DNA from: Candidatus Daviesbacteria bacterium
GTDB lineage: Bacteria > Patescibacteriota > Microgenomatia > Daviesbacterales > UBA10151
Direction: 5' to 3'
DNA length: 64,000 nt
Assembly: GCA_016195715.1 (NCBI GenBank)
Contig: JACPZA010000031.1
Coordinates: 60,336-124,335 of the forward strand
Of this stretch, positions 2,615-60,712 are shown piece by piece. Below the pieces are notes generated by a model, which did not search any database, was not told the DNA's origin, and was given only the letters and a program-made list of their open reading frames with translations. Position numbers and translations under genes: made by a program. Numbering within the stretch: position 1 is the first letter of the stretch; every line of letters begins with the position of its first letter.

Positions 2615-3286
2615 ATGGGAACAGAATCTGCCGCACCAATCATCATTCATACTACTCCTTTACCTGAAAATAAGGGTATACTACCTTCTCAGTATCCAAA
2701 ATCTTTTCCCAAAATACTTTTTATAGTTTTAATTTTAATTATCATAGCTGAGTTAATTTGGGGAGCTTGGTATATTTTCAGACCCCTTCAAAAAAGAATA
2801 AACTCAAGTCCACAAAACAGTTTGGTGACCAAATTACCTAAGTCTACTGCTTCCATTAAACTTTCATCTATAAATCCTAGCGTATCAGTTGGAGATAAAC
2901 TGTCTGTGGATATTAATTTAAGTTCAAAAAACACCCCTTCAGATGGAGTGGATATAGTCATTAAATATGATCCTAACTTTCTTAGGGTTGAAGGTAAAAA
3001 TGAGGAAGTTTTTATCAAAGGTAGTGTTTTTCCAGAATACCTAGGTTACAAGGTTGATAATAAACTGGGAGTGTTGCGTATTTCTGGGATTAGTGAGGTT
3101 ACATCAGCTCCGGCAATTGCCCAGGGATTGTTTGGGACGGTTAATTTTAAAGCTGTCAATCAGGGAACAACTCAAGTGGTGGTGGATTTTAAGCCAGGAA
3201 ATACTACTGATTCTAACGTCATTGATAGTAAGTCAAATAAAGATATTCTTGACAAAGTGAGCAACCTTTCAGTTAAGATTAATTAG
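2615..3286 (+). CDS. Membrane-anchored cohesin-like domain protein
   Basis: An N-terminal TM helix (ILFIVLILIIIAELIWGAWYIF) is followed by a beta-sandwich-like domain with cohesin-type strands (DIVIKYDPNFLRVEG...GSVFP...LFGTVNFKAVNQGTTQVVVDF). Confidence 0.4.
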   Translation: MGTESAAPIIIHTTPLPENKGILPSQYPKSFPKILFIVLILIIIAELIWGAWYIFRPLQKRINSSPQNSLVTKLPKSTASIKLSSINPSVSVGDKLSVDINLSSKNTPSDGVDIVIKYDPNFLRVEGKNEEVFIKGSVFPEYLGYKVDNKLGVLRISGISEVTSAPAIAQGLFGTVNFKAVNQGTTQVVVDFKPGNTTDSNVIDSKSNKDILDKVSNLSVKIN

Positions 3287-9094: not shown

Positions 9095-11650
9095 ATGTTT
9101 CTGTCCAAATTTAAAAAGCAGCTTGCTGTTTTTTTAAAAAATCAACAAGGTGCAATTCCGCTTTTGGTGCTAGTGGCAGTTTTAGGGCTAGTGGCTTTTT
9201 TGGCTATCTCTTCAACTTTTTCTTTTAGAAATAGTATTTTTTCTAGACTTTTTCCTAAACCCCCCTCTCATGCTGCAAGCAAAAATGGTCCAGTTCAAAG
9301 CATCTATACTCCTGATAATTATGGAGTTAATTATTTTGGTTTTTCAAGTGATGATACCATCCGTGGACAACAACTTGATTTAATCAAGCAAACTGGTGCC
9401 AAATGGGTACGAGGAGTGACCTGTCAATGGCAAAGTATTCAATGGGATCAAAATATGTACAGCAGCAACTTATGGAATTTTGCTGCATGCGATAAAATAG
9501 TCAATGAAATAGTTTCTCGAGGTATGACCCCGCTAATGGCACTCTGGTATTCTTCAAATTCCTGTACCACTGCTCCTTCTAATCCAATTACCCAAATTTC
9601 AGGTTACCCACCCTGTGATAATCAGAAGTTTCATGATTATGTTTATCGAGTGGTCAGCCGTTATGGATCCAATGCCAATGGCATTGTCCCTGATAAAAAT
9701 GACACAGCAGCATATGGACAAAACAAGGTGCATTTTTATGAGCTTGGTAATGAGCCAAACAGACAAAATGCATTTCCGATTGCTGATGGACTTGGTGGGA
9801 CCTATGATGCTACTAATGAGCCAGCCCACCTAGCAGCTAACACTTATGTCTCTCTTTTAAATACTGCCCATGATGCCATCAAAGGATCATCAGGGGCAGA
9901 TGCTGGTTCAAATCTGGTGGTGGCATCAATAAATGCTGGTAATGTTATTGTCCCTAGAACAGATTTCTTAACTGATGTTATAAAGGGCGCTGGGAATAAT
10001 ATTGATATCATGAACCTGCATGTCTATGGTGATCAAAAAAGTTTTGACACCTCGCTATCTCAAGCAAAGCAGGCATATGTAGATGCAGGTATAGCAGAAA
10101 AACCTTATTGGGTGACAGAGAATGGTTATGCTAGTGACTCAACCTTTAAAAGTTTCCCCTTCCCCAGCACTGAACCAGATTTTTATTGCCCAACTGGAAC
10201 TTGTTATCAGCAGCAAGCCAATTATATCAATGAAATGATTCCTTATATGTTCAATTCTGGCGTTTCAAAAGTATTTTGGTTTGCTAGTGTTGATGATCCC
10301 CAAAGCACCAGTCCTGGGTATTGTACTGATAGTTTGATGTATTACCCTGGTTATCAATGTAATCAGAATGGTCCTGCACCATCCTCTGTACCTTTAACCC
10401 AAAAAGATCCTGGGTTTACTGCCTACAAAAATTTAGTTGCCAAGCCAGACCCATTACCTCCAATTACCAGCATGGTTTCTCCAGTAGATGGATCTAGTAT
10501 TTCTGGTGCACTTACTATTTCAGCCACAGCTACAGATAATGTTGGGGTAACTAAAGTGGAGTTTTATGTTGACGGAGGAGATAATAAGGGAGGAACTGGA
10601 CCCTATAAAACTATGACTGCCCCAACCTCAGGCAGCACCTATTCTAATGACCAAAATACATTTACTTTAGTTCAGGGTTCAACCCATACTCTTTATGTTA
10701 AAGCTTATGATGCTGCCGGAAATTTTGCCCAATCTAATACTATCTCCTTTAAAGTAACTGACACTACTGCTCCAGCTGTATCTATTACCTATCCTGCCAG
10801 TTCTACCCCTCCTCTTTCTGGAGGAACAACCATTACAGCTACAGCTACAGATAATATTGCTATAGCTCATGTAGATTTTTATATTGATGGGGCACTTTTA
10901 AGCTCTGATAAAAATCCAGATAGTGGGACAAATAATTATTCAGCATTCTGGGGTTCTGGTACTTTACCTCAAGGTTCAATCCACACCATTTATGCAATAG
11001 CTTATGACACTGCTGCTACCCCAAACCAAACTACCTCCCAAACAATTACAGTCACTACTAATGATTCCTCTAAACCAGTAGTTAGCAATATAGTTCCAAC
11101 CAATTTAGCAACCATCAATTCTGGAATTATAGCTGTTTCTGCTACTGCCACAGATAATGTTGGGGTAACTAAAGTTGAGTTCTGGCAAGACTCAGATTCT
11201 GCACCTTTTGCTACAGATACATCTGCCCCCTACTCTGCTAGTTGGGATGCGACTAATTTAAGTCAAGGAGTTCAACACACTCTAACAGTTAAAGCTTACG
11301 ATGCCCAGGGAAACATTGGTAGTGGAACTTCCAAAGTAACTTTTATTGATACTACAAAGCCAGTAATTTCTAACTTACTACCAGTTAATGGTACTGTTGT
11401 TACTCTGAATGTGACTGTTAATCTTCAAGCTACAGCTACAGATAATGTCAAAATAAAAAATGTGACCTTCTCGGTGGATGGAACTCAGAAATGCTCTGTC
11501 GGATATTCCTCCGCTGTCAATGATGTTTACACCTGCTCTAATTGGAAACCAACTCTAAAATCCCATACTTATAATATTTCAGTGACAGCTAATGACACAG
11601 CCTCCTCAACCAATAGCACAACTAGTACGTATACTTTAAAAACATTATAA
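9095..11650 (+). CDS. Glycoside hydrolase, clan GH-A (GH5-like) catalytic domain + 4 bacterial Ig-like repeats + conserved C-terminal domain
   Basis: The catalytic acid/base motif YELGNEPN and the nucleophile motif WVTENGY are present. Repeats of the type ATATDNVGVTKVEFYVDG (Big-like) follow. There is an N-terminal TM or pilin-like leader. Confidence 0.65.
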   Translation: MFLSKFKKQLAVFLKNQQGAIPLLVLVAVLGLVAFLAISSTFSFRNSIFSRLFPKPPSHAASKNGPVQSIYTPDNYGVNYFGFSSDDTIRGQQLDLIKQTGAKWVRGVTCQWQSIQWDQNMYSSNLWNFAACDKIVNEIVSRGMTPLMALWYSSNSCTTAPSNPITQISGYPPCDNQKFHDYVYRVVSRYGSNANGIVPDKNDTAAYGQNKVHFYELGNEPNRQNAFPIADGLGGTYDATNEPAHLAANTYVSLLNTAHDAIKGSSGADAGSNLVVASINAGNVIVPRTDFLTDVIKGAGNNIDIMNLHVYGDQKSFDTSLSQAKQAYVDAGIAEKPYWVTENGYASDSTFKSFPFPSTEPDFYCPTGTCYQQQANYINEMIPYMFNSGVSKVFWFASVDDPQSTSPGYCTDSLMYYPGYQCNQNGPAPSSVPLTQKDPGFTAYKNLVAKPDPLPPITSMVSPVDGSSISGALTISATATDNVGVTKVEFYVDGGDNKGGTGPYKTMTAPTSGSTYSNDQNTFTLVQGSTHTLYVKAYDAAGNFAQSNTISFKVTDTTAPAVSITYPASSTPPLSGGTTITATATDNIAIAHVDFYIDGALLSSDKNPDSGTNNYSAFWGSGTLPQGSIHTIYAIAYDTAATPNQTTSQTITVTTNDSSKPVVSNIVPTNLATINSGIIAVSATATDNVGVTKVEFWQDSDSAPFATDTSAPYSASWDATNLSQGVQHTLTVKAYDAQGNIGSGTSKVTFIDTTKPVISNLLPVNGTVVTLNVTVNLQATATDNVKIKNVTFSVDGTQKCSVGYSSAVNDVYTCSNWKPTLKSHTYNISVTANDTASSTNSTTSTYTLKTL

Positions 11651-48435: not shown

Positions 48436-48744
48436 ATGGCTCAAGGATTCCCTGAGATGAGTGGTAGTAGAGTTTTTGTAGATGCGCTTGCTGCAGCTTA
48501 TAGAGGTGAAAGAATGTTTGGACCTCTTCAGAGGAGAAGTAAACCACCATTCATTAGGTTAAACTCTCACCAAATTGAACAAATTGCTGGCTTTGTAGGA
48601 ACCATTACTGCTTTATCTCTAGTAGCAAAACATCCAAATAAAGATAGGCTAGAATTTTTAATACCCAGAGTTGTTGAAGGTTGGAATGTAGGTGTTTATG
48701 CTGCTAGAACAATCGAAGGATTAATGTACCCACCTACTACTTAG
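48436..48744 (+). CDS. Hypothetical protein
   Basis: A 102-aa ORF in the same GC-elevated segment. Confidence 0.3.
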   Translation: MAQGFPEMSGSRVFVDALAAAYRGERMFGPLQRRSKPPFIRLNSHQIEQIAGFVGTITALSLVAKHPNKDRLEFLIPRVVEGWNVGVYAARTIEGLMYPPTT

Positions 48745-49843
48745 AAGTTAATTTTTCAATCTCTTGCAAAGCTGCTTGCCTTTTGGGATCTTCAAAATAC
48801 TTTCTAGCTGGTTCAAGTTTTTTTATTAACCATTCAGCAACAGCTAACTTTAAATCTTGAGGATGAAGTTTTTTCTCTGCATAATCTTTTTCTAAATCTT
48901 GATAAGAATTATAACTTAAATCCCCTCCCCATTTTGGATCCCTTTTAATAGTAAAAGTAGTGTTTTCTTCATAAAAAATTAAATGCTTAACCCAGTCTAA
49001 AATAGGGTTAAATTCTATCACTCCTTCTGGAGCATAGGCACCATTGATTTTTCTTTTGATAGTCTCAGAATCATCATGGATAAAAATAGCAGAATCAGGT
49101 TTGGACTTGCTCATTTTTGCAGCTTCTAAATCCATAACTTTTTTGCCAGTTTCTGAGTCGTCAACTAAAATAGGAGGTAAAAGTCCTTGCAATAAATGAG
49201 TATGAATAGCTATTGGTTTTTGGTAACCTAATTCAACTGCGCAGTCTCTGGCAACAATATGAACATTTCTTTGATCAGTTCCAGCATGAGCAATATTAAT
49301 TCCCATCATAAAAATATCTGCAGACTGCATTGCTGGATAAATCAACATAGCAGAATCAGTTACCTCAGCCTCTTTTCTGCCCATAATAGTAGTACTTCTG
49401 AGCATTCTAGATAAGGTTGTGGCTTTAGAGACCCTTACCACTGTTGCCCAATAATCTAATCCTAGCTTTTGATAAAGTTCACTGCCCAAAACAAAATTAA
49501 TTTTTTCAGGATCTGCTCCAACACAAAGAGCGCTAGCTTTAAATGCTTCCATTAAATAATTTTTGCCAACTTTGGTAATAGTTTCTAGTTCGCCATCTAA
49601 TTTTTTATTTAACCAAGCGTGCCAGTCAGCCAAGAAAACCGTCACCTCTACTCCAGCTTCTTGCAGGTCTTTAATTTTCATTAAAGTATACAGACCTTGA
49701 CCAATATGCAAAATTCCTGAAACTTCATAACCAATATAATGTTTTAAAGGGGTTCCAGAATCTATTAAAGCTTTTAGTTCTTCTTCAGTTAAAACTTCTT
49801 CTAGATTTCTGGTTATTAATTTAATTTTTTCTTCAGTTGTCAT
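48737..49843 (-). CDS. tyrS: Tyrosine--tRNA ligase, archaeal/eukaryotic type (class Ic; TrpRS not fully excluded)
   Basis: A HIGH-like motif (GILHIGQG), an ADWHA motif (archaeal TyrRS has ADLHAYLN), YPAMQSADI...GTDQRNVHIVARD, and KMSKS followed by ..KRKINGAYAPEG (compare archaeal TyrRS KKAYCPAG). Confidence 0.65.
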   Translation of the reverse strand: MTTEEKIKLITRNLEEVLTEEELKALIDSGTPLKHYIGYEVSGILHIGQGLYTLMKIKDLQEAGVEVTVFLADWHAWLNKKLDGELETITKVGKNYLMEAFKASALCVGADPEKINFVLGSELYQKLGLDYWATVVRVSKATTLSRMLRSTTIMGRKEAEVTDSAMLIYPAMQSADIFMMGINIAHAGTDQRNVHIVARDCAVELGYQKPIAIHTHLLQGLLPPILVDDSETGKKVMDLEAAKMSKSKPDSAIFIHDDSETIKRKINGAYAPEGVIEFNPILDWVKHLIFYEENTTFTIKRDPKWGGDLSYNSYQDLEKDYAEKKLHPQDLKLAVAEWLIKKLEPARKYFEDPKRQAALQEIEKLTSK

Positions 49844-49935
49844 AAATTTTAGCTAATAAAATGTAACATAAATTTTTCCTGGGGTACAGTTGCTAGTGCA
49901 CTTCCAAAAGTACCCCAAGAAGGTAATACTCAGGA

Positions 49936-50259
49936 TCAGCCATTTTGTTCTTGGTTTGTCTTGATTAACCTGAGAACTCTTCTACCTGCGTCAAATGCTA
50001 AAGCAGCACTTAAACTTGTTAAAAGAAAAGCTGTAGTTATTGGTGAAAATCCCAAATCTAGACCTTCCTGTACAAGTTTTCCAGGTTGTAAACCCAACCA
50101 ATTTCTCTCACCAGTGATCATAGTCTGTAAATGCTCAGTTCTGCCGCTAGCTAAATCATTAGTAAGGTTAAAAAAGTCTGGTTCACATGCTCCAACGACC
50201 CCTTCTCCTAGCGCAATTGCTGCTTCAGCTGCGATATCAGATTTATTTTTACTTTCCAT
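49936..50259 (-). CDS. Small protein directly downstream of T-box leader; weak Asp23/Gls24 (DUF322)-like N-terminus
   Basis: A strong SD (AAAGGAGGUGA) lies 6 nt upstream of the ATG at 50259. The N-terminus KSDIAAEAAIALGEGVVGA..LTNDLASG resembles the Asp23 family motif. Confidence 0.35.
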   Translation of the reverse strand: MESKNKSDIAAEAAIALGEGVVGACEPDFFNLTNDLASGRTEHLQTMITGERNWLGLQPGKLVQEGLDLGFSPITTAFLLTSLSAALAFDAGRRVLRLIKTNQEQNG

Positions 50260-50289
50260 TATTCTCACCTCCTTTTAGGGCTAAATTTT

Positions 50290-50624
50290 TAACAAAAAAA
50301 CCCTTGTCTGATTACCAAAATTGATAAACAGACAAGGGCCAACAAAAATGGCGTTACCACCTTGTATTTAAATCTATTAAAAAACAGGCCGTGTCGCCTG
50401 TTAACTTAAAGATTTCTTTAAGTGCTCCGATTATTCGACACACTCTTTTCGCTATTACGGTGCTGCCCGGCATGCCTTAATTTGAGTTCTCATTTCAGGG
50501 TGCAACTCAGGAGGGTAATTCAAAATAAACTTTTCGCTAAGCTTTCACCAACCGCTTAGTCTCTTTTGTCTACCAGTTTACTTCTACTCTTTCTCCTTCA
50601 ACGTCTTTCAAATATTAAATTGTA
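50290..50624 (-). promoter_or_regulatory. T-box riboswitch leader, tyrosine-specific (specifier UAC, discriminator-reading bulge UGGU)
   Basis: Minus-strand RNA shows AGAG/AGUA boxes and a GGUGA distal motif. The candidate specifier is GAA-UUAC-C. The T-box sequence AAGGUGGUAACGCC matches 10/12 of GGUGGNACCGCG. The antiterminator is ACAAGG / 7-nt bulge UGGUAAC / GCCA-loop-UGGC / CCUUGU, overlapping the 5' half of the terminator. Confidence 0.6.
50294..50338 (-). terminator. Rho-independent terminator (T-box leader terminator)
   Basis: The minus strand reads CCCUUGUCUG-(18 nt loop)-CAGACAAGGG followed by UUUUUUU. Confidence 0.65.
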
Positions 50625-50630
50625 AAATTT

Positions 50631-50659
50631 ATTATATCACAACTCTAAATTATGTCAAC
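50631..50659 (-). promoter_or_regulatory. Consensus sigma70 promoter with extended -10 driving the T-box leader
   Basis: The minus strand reads TTGACA - 16 nt - TGaTATAAT. It sits immediately downstream of the stop of ORF 50666..51268. Confidence 0.55.
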
Positions 50660-50665
50660 TATAGG

Positions 50666-51268
50666 TTACGGCGATTCTGAAAACATTTGTGAAGATCTTC
50701 TTGGGCGGGTGTGTGGAGGCATTACCAAAAAGTATTCTTCCCAGCTAACCATATTAGCGGCCATCCATCTAATTCCTCCCCAAAGCAGTCTAAAGCTTTC
50801 TATTGAAGGGTTACGAGCATAATCTTCTGCAGATATACTAATACCAAAATCCTTGTAAAAGAACCCTAACGTTAAACTTCGGGAATCTTGGCCAAGTGGT
50901 AAAGAACATCTTATTAATACTGAATCAGCGAGTCCTGTAGCTATCCCTCCTGCACTTAACTCAACTCGTGGATTAAAAGCTGACAGTTCTTCTTCCGGTT
51001 CCGCAACTAGTGTAGCAACACCAAGTTGTGAAGGTTTACGAATAACATATGCTCCAATTACTCTGGAATATTTCTTAAGTAACTCTCTACCAACAATTCG
51101 AAATGATTCTGCTAAAGTTTGAGGATCAATGCCTACTAAATTCATCAAATCTTCTGGATCATGAAATAAATCTTCCGGTGTATCAGTAATTCTTCGAAGA
51201 TTTCCTCTTGCTTGTTCTAATAGTAGTCTTTCTTTTCGGGAAAGTTTCCTTTCTTTTCTTTCAACCAT
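50666..51268 (-). CDS. Hypothetical protein (GC-elevated)
   Basis: A 200-aa ORF with ~48% GC locally and no recognisable motifs. Confidence 0.3.
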   Translation of the reverse strand: MVERKERKLSRKERLLLEQARGNLRRITDTPEDLFHDPEDLMNLVGIDPQTLAESFRIVGRELLKKYSRVIGAYVIRKPSQLGVATLVAEPEEELSAFNPRVELSAGGIATGLADSVLIRCSLPLGQDSRSLTLGFFYKDFGISISAEDYARNPSIESFRLLWGGIRWMAANMVSWEEYFLVMPPHTRPRRSSQMFSESP

Positions 51269-51369
51269 AGATTTAAAATTGTAACAGAGGTAGTTCTTAA
51301 AATCAACCTATAGTTAACCACACGAACTGATTGACTCAAGTTAAGCTTATTCAGTAAAATATTCTTGTT

Positions 51370-60595: not shown

Positions 60596-60668
60596 CCAGA
60601 GTTGGCAGAGCGGTCGATGCGTCGGTCTGTAAAACCGATTTAGCCTGGTTCGACTCCAGGACTCTGGA
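60596..60668 (+). tRNA. tRNA-Tyr (anticodon GUA), class I (short variable arm), C1:G72, A73, CCA not encoded
   Basis: Cloverleaf: acceptor CCAGAGU/ACUCUGG, D-arm GCAG..GG..UGC, anticodon stem UCGGU/ACCGA with loop CUGUAAA (U33, G34-U35-A36), 5-nt variable region, T-arm CCUGG-UUCGACU-CCAGG. A TATAAT lies ~25 nt upstream. Confidence 0.85.
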
Positions 60669-60712
60669 CTTAATTTAAAAAGTTCAGCCTCTTTTTGTTA
60701 TAATTTGCTTGT

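Follow-up and report, generated by a model that had tools for sequence, protein, structure and literature searches.

T-box riboswitches, of which the leader of Bacillus subtilis tyrS is the founding example (Grundy & Henkin 1993, cited in PMC7778990), lie in Firmicutes in over 95% of cases; a small number occur in Actinobacteria, Chloroflexi and Deinococcus-Thermus and in two delta-proteobacteria, and these have been attributed either to inheritance from an ancestor that the first three groups share with Firmicutes, or to horizontal transfer (Wels et al. 2008, PMC2494555; TBDB preprint 10.1101/2020.06.17.157016). The Candidate Phyla Radiation (CPR)/Patescibacteria are not listed in those surveys, and a literature search, which covered open-access papers only and is weak evidence of absence, found nothing linking T-boxes with CPR, Patescibacteria, Microgenomates or Saccharibacteria. 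The subject of this report is a leader on the minus strand of a 64-kb stretch of the genome of an ultrasmall groundwater bacterium, Candidatus Daviesbacteria (contig JACPZA010000031.1; hereafter the window), upstream of an archaeal-type tyrosyl-tRNA synthetase (TyrRS) gene, tyrS. Judged by its sequence, this leader is very probably a T-box riboswitch of the transcriptional class (class I) with specificity for tRNA-Tyr. An initial annotation had already read it as a Tyr-specific, transcription-attenuating T-box, and the Rfam score, the invariant UAC specifier, covariation among homologues and a helix strand shared by the two competing hairpins all support that reading. Its remark that T-boxes are classically a Firmicutes feature is right about where most of them lie and overstates their rarity elsewhere, non-Firmicutes T-boxes being already documented (PMC2494555); the reduced low-GC genome that it supposed belongs to a member of the CPR/Patescibacteria.

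The mechanism and architecture are standard, as in class I T-boxes such as that of B. subtilis tyrS. The window leader shares with the latter a stem I containing a K-turn, a specifier loop with a putative S-turn, an AG bulge and a distal loop, followed (as in the class I form of the Rfam family RF00230) by stem II, the IIA/B region, stem III, an antiterminator with a 7-nt UGGN bulge and a competing U-tract terminator; the UAC specifier, the match of UGGU to A73 of the tRNA and the tyrosyl-tRNA synthetase gene as the regulated gene are likewise common to both. The window leader differs from that of B. subtilis in its host (Daviesbacteria of the CPR rather than a Firmicute), in its presumed partners (an archaeal-like tRNA with C1-G72 and a short variable arm instead of the bacterial long-arm tRNA-Tyr, and an archaeal-type TyrRS), in having C and not a purine after the specifier, in an extra conserved hairpin between IIA/B and stem III, in a long stem III with a terminator-like hairpin and five invariant U's, in a bulge that reads UGGUAAC rather than UGGUACC, and in an orphan open reading frame (ORF) that separates the leader from tyrS.

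Against the whole 64-kb window, RF00230 (the Rfam T-box model) matches positions 50610 to 50331 of the minus strand over its entire length (model positions 1-219 of 219) with 97.0 bits and E = 4.5e-20. The match that the initial annotation proposed to look for exceeds the gathering score of 93 bits, by a small margin; seven homologous leaders that were tested are all called full-length T-boxes by Rfam, at 74-117 bits. A more permissive scan (E <= 0.1) found no second T-box in the window. Folding of the whole leader beats that of its own shuffled sequences (z = -4.2). The consensus promoter first annotated upstream, TTGACA-16-TGaTATAAT, is present as described: its hexamers match the consensus at 12 of 12 positions, the TG extension is there, and it is the top-scoring site within the 3-kb region scanned. 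Transcription is predicted to start at about 50623; counted from there through the U-tract, the leader measures about 330 nt, little short of the roughly 335 nt estimated at first. The parts of the leader are as follows.

50631-50658, minus strand: sigma-70-type promoter, with the -35 box TTGACA at 50658-50653, a 16-nt spacer and the TG-extended -10 box TGaTATAAT at 50639-50631
50331-50610, minus strand: T-box leader (stem I, stem II, IIA/B, stem III, antiterminator), as matched by RF00230; 170.8 bits with a profile of the homologous leaders
50505-50601, minus strand: stem I, from the Rfam alignment and motif coordinates
50515-50517, minus strand: specifier UAC (Tyr), complementary to anticodon GUA; TBDB default frame, present in 21 of 21 leaders
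50454-50504, minus strand: stem II (50504-50471) and the IIA/B region (50470-50454) with an F-box-like CCGUAA, from the Rfam alignment
50420-50445, minus strand: extra hairpin GAGUGUGUCGAAUAAUCGGAGCACUU, a 24-nt insertion relative to the Rfam model
50370-50415, minus strand: long stem III, with an inner G+C-rich hairpin at 50402-50383 and then a U-run at 50384-50379
50332-50365, minus strand: antiterminator, with A1 ACAAGG/CCUUGU, the T-box bulge UGGUAAC and A2 GCCA/UGGC
50294-50339, minus strand: intrinsic terminator, an 11+6-bp hairpin at 50339-50300 with U7 at 50300-50294

Stem I has the basal K-turn (strands UUGAAGGAG and CUCCUGAGU at 50601-50593 and 50513-50505), the AGUA and GAA motifs (the former at 50590-50584), the AG bulge (AGAGA, 50565-50559) and the distal loop (GCGGUUGGUGAAAGC, 50555-50541) of a tRNA-elbow platform; the elements of stem I listed in the initial annotation are all where it placed them on the minus strand, and the stem I helices covary among the homologous leaders described below. 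The 3' side of the specifier loop, GAAUUACC at 50521-50514, is divided as GAA-U-UAC-C. By default, TBDB counts back from the 3' end of the specifier bulge and takes nucleotides 2-4 as the specifier (PMC7778990); by this rule the specifier is UAC at 50517-50515, the triplet that had been offered as a candidate; it is invariant in 21 of 21 aligned leaders.

The only tRNA gene in the window encodes a tRNA-Tyr(GUA), and the U of UGGU is complementary to its A73, so that the match first proposed with the tRNA-Tyr at 60596 is borne out. This tRNA and the synthetase gene that is presumed to be the main target of the switch are located at

60596-60669, plus strand: tRNA-Tyr(GUA), the predicted ligand, with A73, C1-G72, a short variable arm and no encoded CCA
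48737-49843, minus strand: tyrS, encoding an archaeal-type tyrosyl-tRNA synthetase of 368 aa (PF00579; NF006330)

A C1-G72 pair and a short variable arm are identity features of archaeal and eukaryotic tRNA-Tyr. By these features the tRNA of this bacterium is of the archaeal/eukaryotic style, as fits the archaeal-type TyrRS encoded at 48737-49843. The enzyme scores 427 bits with NF006330 (PRK08560; cutoff 220) and 112.7 bits with the bacterial model TIGR00234, below the cutoff of 113.8, and its closest structures in the PDB are archaeal (2cyc, 2cya, 2cyb and 1j1u, E = 1e-110 to 1e-56, compared with 2e-11 for the bacterial 1h3e), in agreement with its first description as archaeal-type. It is 100% identical to an NCBI protein of Candidatus Daviesbacteria (Microgenomates group, CPR).

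The antiterminator was described correctly from the start (ACAAGG/CCUUGU, UGGUAAC, GCCA-loop-UGGC, at 50365-50332), with the 7-nt T-box bulge UGGUAAC at 50359-50353, of which UGGU pairs with the ACCA 3' end of a tRNA. The U7 of the terminator was also correct; its stem, first given as 10 bp, is longer, an interrupted stem of 11+6 bp. The sequence CCCUUGU is both the 5' strand of the terminator and the 3' strand of the antiterminator, and the folding check that had been proposed accordingly finds the two structures mutually exclusive. The terminator hairpin has a folding energy of -24.5 kcal/mol, compared with about -9.5 (-9.5 to -10.7) kcal/mol for the antiterminator, and the whole leader folds at -90.1 kcal/mol in the terminator form and at -80.7 kcal/mol with the antiterminator forced. 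Because the terminator is the more stable, the default state would be OFF, as in classical T-boxes.

In the proposed mechanism, RNA polymerase would start near 50623 at the consensus promoter and make the leader of about 330 nt, stem I of which would bind tRNA-Tyr by UAC:GUA pairing and by docking of the tRNA elbow on the platform of AGAGA and the distal loop. If the tRNA were uncharged, its free ACCA end would pair with the UGGU bulge and stabilise the weak antiterminator, permitting read-through into the 107-aa ORF107 and, most likely, tyrS; if the tRNA were charged or absent, the far more stable terminator would form and transcription would stop at U7. Both the tRNA dependence of the switch and the co-transcription of tyrS with ORF107 are inferred from sequence features.

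A class II (translational) mechanism does not fit the arrangement, in which U7 directly follows the terminator hairpin and the Shine-Dalgarno (SD) sequence lies 18 nt downstream, outside the helix. The class II T-boxes of actinobacterial ileS, in which stem I is truncated (Sherwood et al. 2015, cited in PMC7778990), resemble the window leader in sensing the tRNA through the specifier and the UGGN bulge, and differ from it in that the window leader has a full-length stem I, a real U-tract terminator and an SD that stands 18 nt past the U-tract and is not sequestered. The real terminator and the unsequestered SD argue for transcriptional control.

Homologous leaders were sought in metagenomes with a pattern that combined AG bulge, distal loop and T-box bulge, spaced as far apart as they are in the window leader. 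Twenty-five of the 73 loci returned (about 20 distinct sequences) align with the window leader nearly end to end, at 51-63% identity and with nhmmer E-values down to 5e-24. In a MAFFT alignment of 21 leaders (alignment A1), AGAGA, GCGGUUGGUGAAAG and GGUGGUA are invariant. The structure predicted by RNAalifold, which is derived from the same alignment as that on which it was tested, has 45 pairs, 29 of them with compensatory changes. Cells of the alignment that the structure pairs can do so in 93.5% of cases, compared with 76.4% in shuffled alignments and at most 51% when the partners are slid; double changes occupy 161 cells where 54 are expected, and the covariation score is 0.543 as opposed to 0.225. 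The observed values were reached in none of 500 shuffles. Compensatory changes affect 17 of the 24 pairs of stem I helices 1-4 and seven of the nine pairs (helices 6 and 7) of the extra hairpin between IIA/B and stem III, which is kept across the family. The CGG/CCG helix of the stem II-IIA/B region is conserved as well (helix 5); the IIA/B pseudoknot is putative. Nearly all of the 20 homologous leaders are preceded, at a distance of 7-19 nt, by a strong promoter (10-12 of 12 positions), and in almost every homologous leader tested a weaker antiterminator overlaps a stronger terminator followed by U5-8.

Within the window leader there is also a 22-nt imperfect direct repeat (50518-50539 and 50433-50454, UAGCGAAAAG...GAAU, 77% identity). 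Its first copy belongs to the 3' strand of stem I, while the second begins shortly ahead of the extra hairpin and extends into it; the repeat may go back to a duplication inside the leader, or be due to chance.

The genes behind these leaders form a pattern of their own. In 12 of the 25 loci the U-tract is followed, after 0-30 nt, by a tRNA-Tyr(GUA) gene of the same orientation, confirmed by the Rfam tRNA model, and a thirteenth case (L105) is cut off at the end of its contig, whereas none of 47 T-box loci outside the family, from the same metagenome scan, has a tRNA gene at this place.

L076, L113, L081/L136, L118/L130, L065, L089, L077, L072, L096, L135, L105: loci with tRNA-Tyr behind the leader
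L113, leader 9980-10267, tRNA 10313-10384: an example

With a spacing of 0-30 nt, several of these loci have no room for a separate tRNA promoter; in L089, L077 and L135 the tRNA gene abuts the U-tract without a single intervening nucleotide. At least 17 of the 25 loci have tyrS and/or tRNA-Tyr(GUA) as cargo, TyrRS being encoded in at least 11; six have unrelated downstream genes, and a few contigs end first. Short tRNAs (C1-G72) accompany archaeal-type TyrRS in L076, L113, L081 and L118, and long-arm tRNAs (G1-C72) accompany bacterial TyrRS with an S4 domain in L065, L072 and L096; all of the adjacent tRNA-Tyr genes have A73, matching UGGU. Between tRNA-Tyr and tyrS, where tyrS is present, there are recurrent operon proteins, namely a 297-aa family, a family of about 330 aa and a 153-aa protein with an aminoacyl-tRNA editing domain (PF04073), seen in L076 (444-1804) and L113 (772-2134, both counted from the leader start), L065, L096, L089 and L135. 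The 297-aa protein has no Pfam family and no relative in the PDB.

The usual layout of the family, which occurs on CPR-like contigs, is to judge from these sequences promoter, T-box, tRNA-Tyr, accessory genes and tyrS; in the window genome the tRNA gene is 10 kb off and an orphan ORF stands in its place. The T-boxes of Chloroflexi, Deinococcus-Thermus and delta-proteobacteria are similarly sporadic, low in copy number and mostly found before aminoacyl-tRNA synthetase genes, but the window element differs from them in being one of about 20 distinct related leaders, many of them apparently driving a tRNA gene. No description of this leader family, and no literature on a tRNA gene as T-box cargo, was found among open-access papers, to which the search was restricted, so that this is weak evidence of absence. 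A possible account, for and against which we consider the case evenly balanced, is that the window leader belongs to an undescribed, CPR-associated clade of Tyr T-boxes whose cargo is typically, and probably was ancestrally, the gene of the sensed tRNA, such that the ligand and its charging enzyme are autoregulated; that the clade persisted through replacement of the tRNA/synthetase identity; and that the window shows a derived state, from which the tRNA gene has moved away.

The distance of the tRNA-Tyr gene, which normally adjoins the leaders of this family and here lies 10 kb away on the other strand, could instead indicate that the window leader is a decaying relic of an ancestral T-box/tRNA-Tyr/tyrS operon, left by rearrangement and no longer switching, as could the orphan genes at the flanks of the block that contains the leader, a block absent from relatives. 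Such decay is very unlikely given that all positions invariant in the family are intact (97 bits with Rfam, 171 bits with the family profile), that the promoter is a perfect consensus, and that the terminator and antiterminator are preserved with the usual energy gap.

Several observations weigh against a Tyr-specific T-box that controls tyrS, and are taken in turn with the alternatives on which they bear: C follows the specifier in the window (50514) and in 20 of 21 leaders, where canonical T-boxes have a conserved purine; ACC (Thr), the +1 frame, is nearly invariant too; a terminator-like hairpin with a U-run, in stem III, sits upstream of the antiterminator; ORF107 intervenes between the switch and tyrS, and a hairpin in the spacer that follows it (-25 kcal/mol) could limit read-through into tyrS; and the closest relatives have tyrS without a T-box.

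The C after the specifier is a deviation specific to the family, a purine at this position being typical and not strictly defining. Since ACC is also nearly invariant, by virtue of that C, the specificity for Tyr rests partly on the cargo. Sensing of another tRNA through a shifted specifier frame, ACC/Thr (+1) or UUA/Leu (-1), both frames being permitted by TBDB (PMC7778990), would account for the C and for the missing purine. However, the base before the invariant UAC varies (U, G or A), which fixes the reading frame and excludes -1; UAC, not UAU, is the specifier of 99% of the Tyr T-boxes in TBDB (PMC7778990); and the leaders have tRNA-Tyr(GUA) as cargo in 12-13 loci and TyrRS in at least 11, with no ThrRS or LeuRS in any of them. 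A ligand other than tRNA-Tyr is on these grounds extremely improbable, and tRNA-Tyr is retained as the predicted ligand.

The inner hairpin of stem III scores as terminator-like, its pairs covary (helix 8; columns 256-276 of alignment A1), and the five U's that follow it (50384-50380) are invariant in 21 leaders. These findings suggest an intrinsic terminator or a pause signal upstream of the actual switch. This element and the extra hairpin are the two features peculiar to the family. Polymerase pausing is known from the glyQS leader, which is the reason for considering a pause signal in stem III.

The first gene past the switch was overlooked in the initial annotation, which was right that the leader belongs to an archaeal-type TyrRS locus and missed a 107-aa ORF (50259-49936) in between.

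49936-50275, minus strand: SD AAAGGAGGUG (50275-50266) and ORF107 (ATG at 50259, stop at 49936), the first gene past the switch
49844-49935, minus strand: spacer of 92 nt between ORF107 and tyrS, with a 12-bp hairpin at 49921-49876, no U-tract and no good promoter

An SD-like motif precedes just 2 of the 37 ORFs of at least 200 aa in the window, and ORF107 has a perfect one, AAAGGAGGUG; comparably strong SDs precede the small ORFs behind the leaders in L110 and L028. ORF107 matches no family in Pfam or NCBIfam, and its single-sequence AlphaFold model has a pLDDT of 62. Among 1.8 billion representative proteins it has one credible homologue, P0126 (106 aa, 29% identity over an ungapped 97 aa), the gene of which (L063, 751-1071) is directly upstream of a tRNA-related gene for an AlaXM-like editing protein; the two may constitute a tiny, two-member family of small proteins associated with aminoacyl-tRNA synthetases. 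HMMER matches of ORF107 to the large repeat proteins P0123-P0125 were dismissed as artefacts of repeats or composition. ORF200, upstream of the promoter, is an orphan, and is unrelated to the 138-aa ORF upstream of P0126.

The position of ORF107 raises the question of whether a functional T-box might control ORF107 only, with tyrS transcribed apart or the transcript cut or processed at the spacer hairpin. The spacer does fold stably (-25.1 kcal/mol, z = -3.6), with a 12-bp hairpin that may serve to process or stabilise the transcript or act as a partial terminator. Within ORF107 there is a weak promoter-like site (50022-49995, 9 of 12 positions), and the tyrS genes of close relatives run from a promoter of their own. 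But the hairpin has no U-tract, no promoter-like site was found on the minus strand of the spacer, and the promoter sequence of the relatives is not kept, homology ending at the ATG. Moreover, a UAC specifier makes biological sense only with tyrS, and the layout of a small ORF followed by tyrS recurs behind the leaders of L110, L097 and L118 (with recG next in L110 and L097). Control of ORF107 alone is therefore improbable, and read-through into tyrS is the preferred interpretation.

The nearest relative available (L060, TyrRS 91% identical) has conserved flanks comprising the atp operon, tyrS and recG; homology to it ends exactly at the tyrS ATG, and a 1.5-kb block of the window (51342-49845), which runs from ORF200 through the promoter, leader and ORF107 to the spacer, is missing from it. 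The tyrS promoter of L060 (TTGCTG-18-TATAAT, 2950-3003) ends 6 nt before the ATG, which suggests that the tyrS mRNA of this relative, without a T-box, is leaderless or nearly so. No T-box was found upstream of tyrS in about 26 other species-level loci of Daviesbacteria, most of which have upstream gaps of less than 110 nt, and none was found by Rfam at the gathering threshold in 40 related tyrS loci. Because the gathering cutoff is high, the relatives were searched again, with Rfam at E <= 1 (17 loci), with blastn and nhmmer, with a structure-aware scan for antiterminators and with the family profile; L028 was the sole positive among the related tyrS loci, and the antiterminator scan was positive in the window and L028 only. 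Expression of tyrS in the closest relatives without a T-box implies that this regulation is dispensable in the lineage.

The 1.5-kb block is not a chimera of assembly, since the arrangement is reproduced in a separate Logan assembly (L061) with 100% identity over 1,922 nt. Insertion by a mobile element was considered and set aside, no convincing terminal repeats being found. A 14-nt inverted repeat (50654-50667 and 51305-51318, 13 of 14 positions complementary) has its arms on either side of the orphan ORF200, one of them reaching into the -35 box; it is at about chance level (about 0.3 expected in the region) and probably not meaningful. The G+C content of the block, about 0.38-0.39 compared with 0.30-0.35 in its flanks, is not distinctive, other parts of the window reaching 0.38.

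The leader of L028 belongs to Candidatus Shapirobacteria UBA2283 and lacks most of stem I.

L028, 563-784, plus strand: leader without most of stem I; 52 bits, below the gathering score

It covers positions 93-313 of the family profile, has its specifier (...AAUACA) in an apparent terminal loop, and is followed in order by a 56-aa ORF, tRNA-Tyr, two genes and tyrS. In the loss of most of stem I it resembles the short-stem-I forms of actinobacterial ileS. The TyrRS of L118 is 75% identical to that of a metagenome-assembled genome of Shapirobacteria. The distribution of the element is thus patchy, with one occurrence in Daviesbacteria and further ones on Shapirobacteria-like and other contigs.

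In the Daviesbacteria genome of the window, the expression of tyrS is probably tuned by the charging of tRNA-Tyr through a classic T-box, to judge from its sequence. This would extend T-box regulation to the CPR/Patescibacteria, in which very few regulators are known and genetic tools are lacking, and in which riboswitches have been noted as promising tools (review, PMC11665869). It would also mean that an archaeal-style tRNA-Tyr/TyrRS pair is compatible with a bacterial T-box, of which no report was found in the open-access literature; on mechanistic grounds this is to be expected, because a T-box recognises its tRNA by anticodon, elbow and NCCA end alone. The interest of the locus lies in its CPR host, in the archaeal-type tRNA and TyrRS that are its partners, in the patchy distribution, which bears on whether T-boxes in the CPR are ancestral or acquired, and above all in the operons of T-box followed by tRNA-Tyr among the relatives of the leader. 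If the account given above is true, a leader family that carries the gene of the sensed tRNA as cargo would add to the regulatory logic of T-boxes, the tRNA and its synthetase being co-regulated by the charging ratio.

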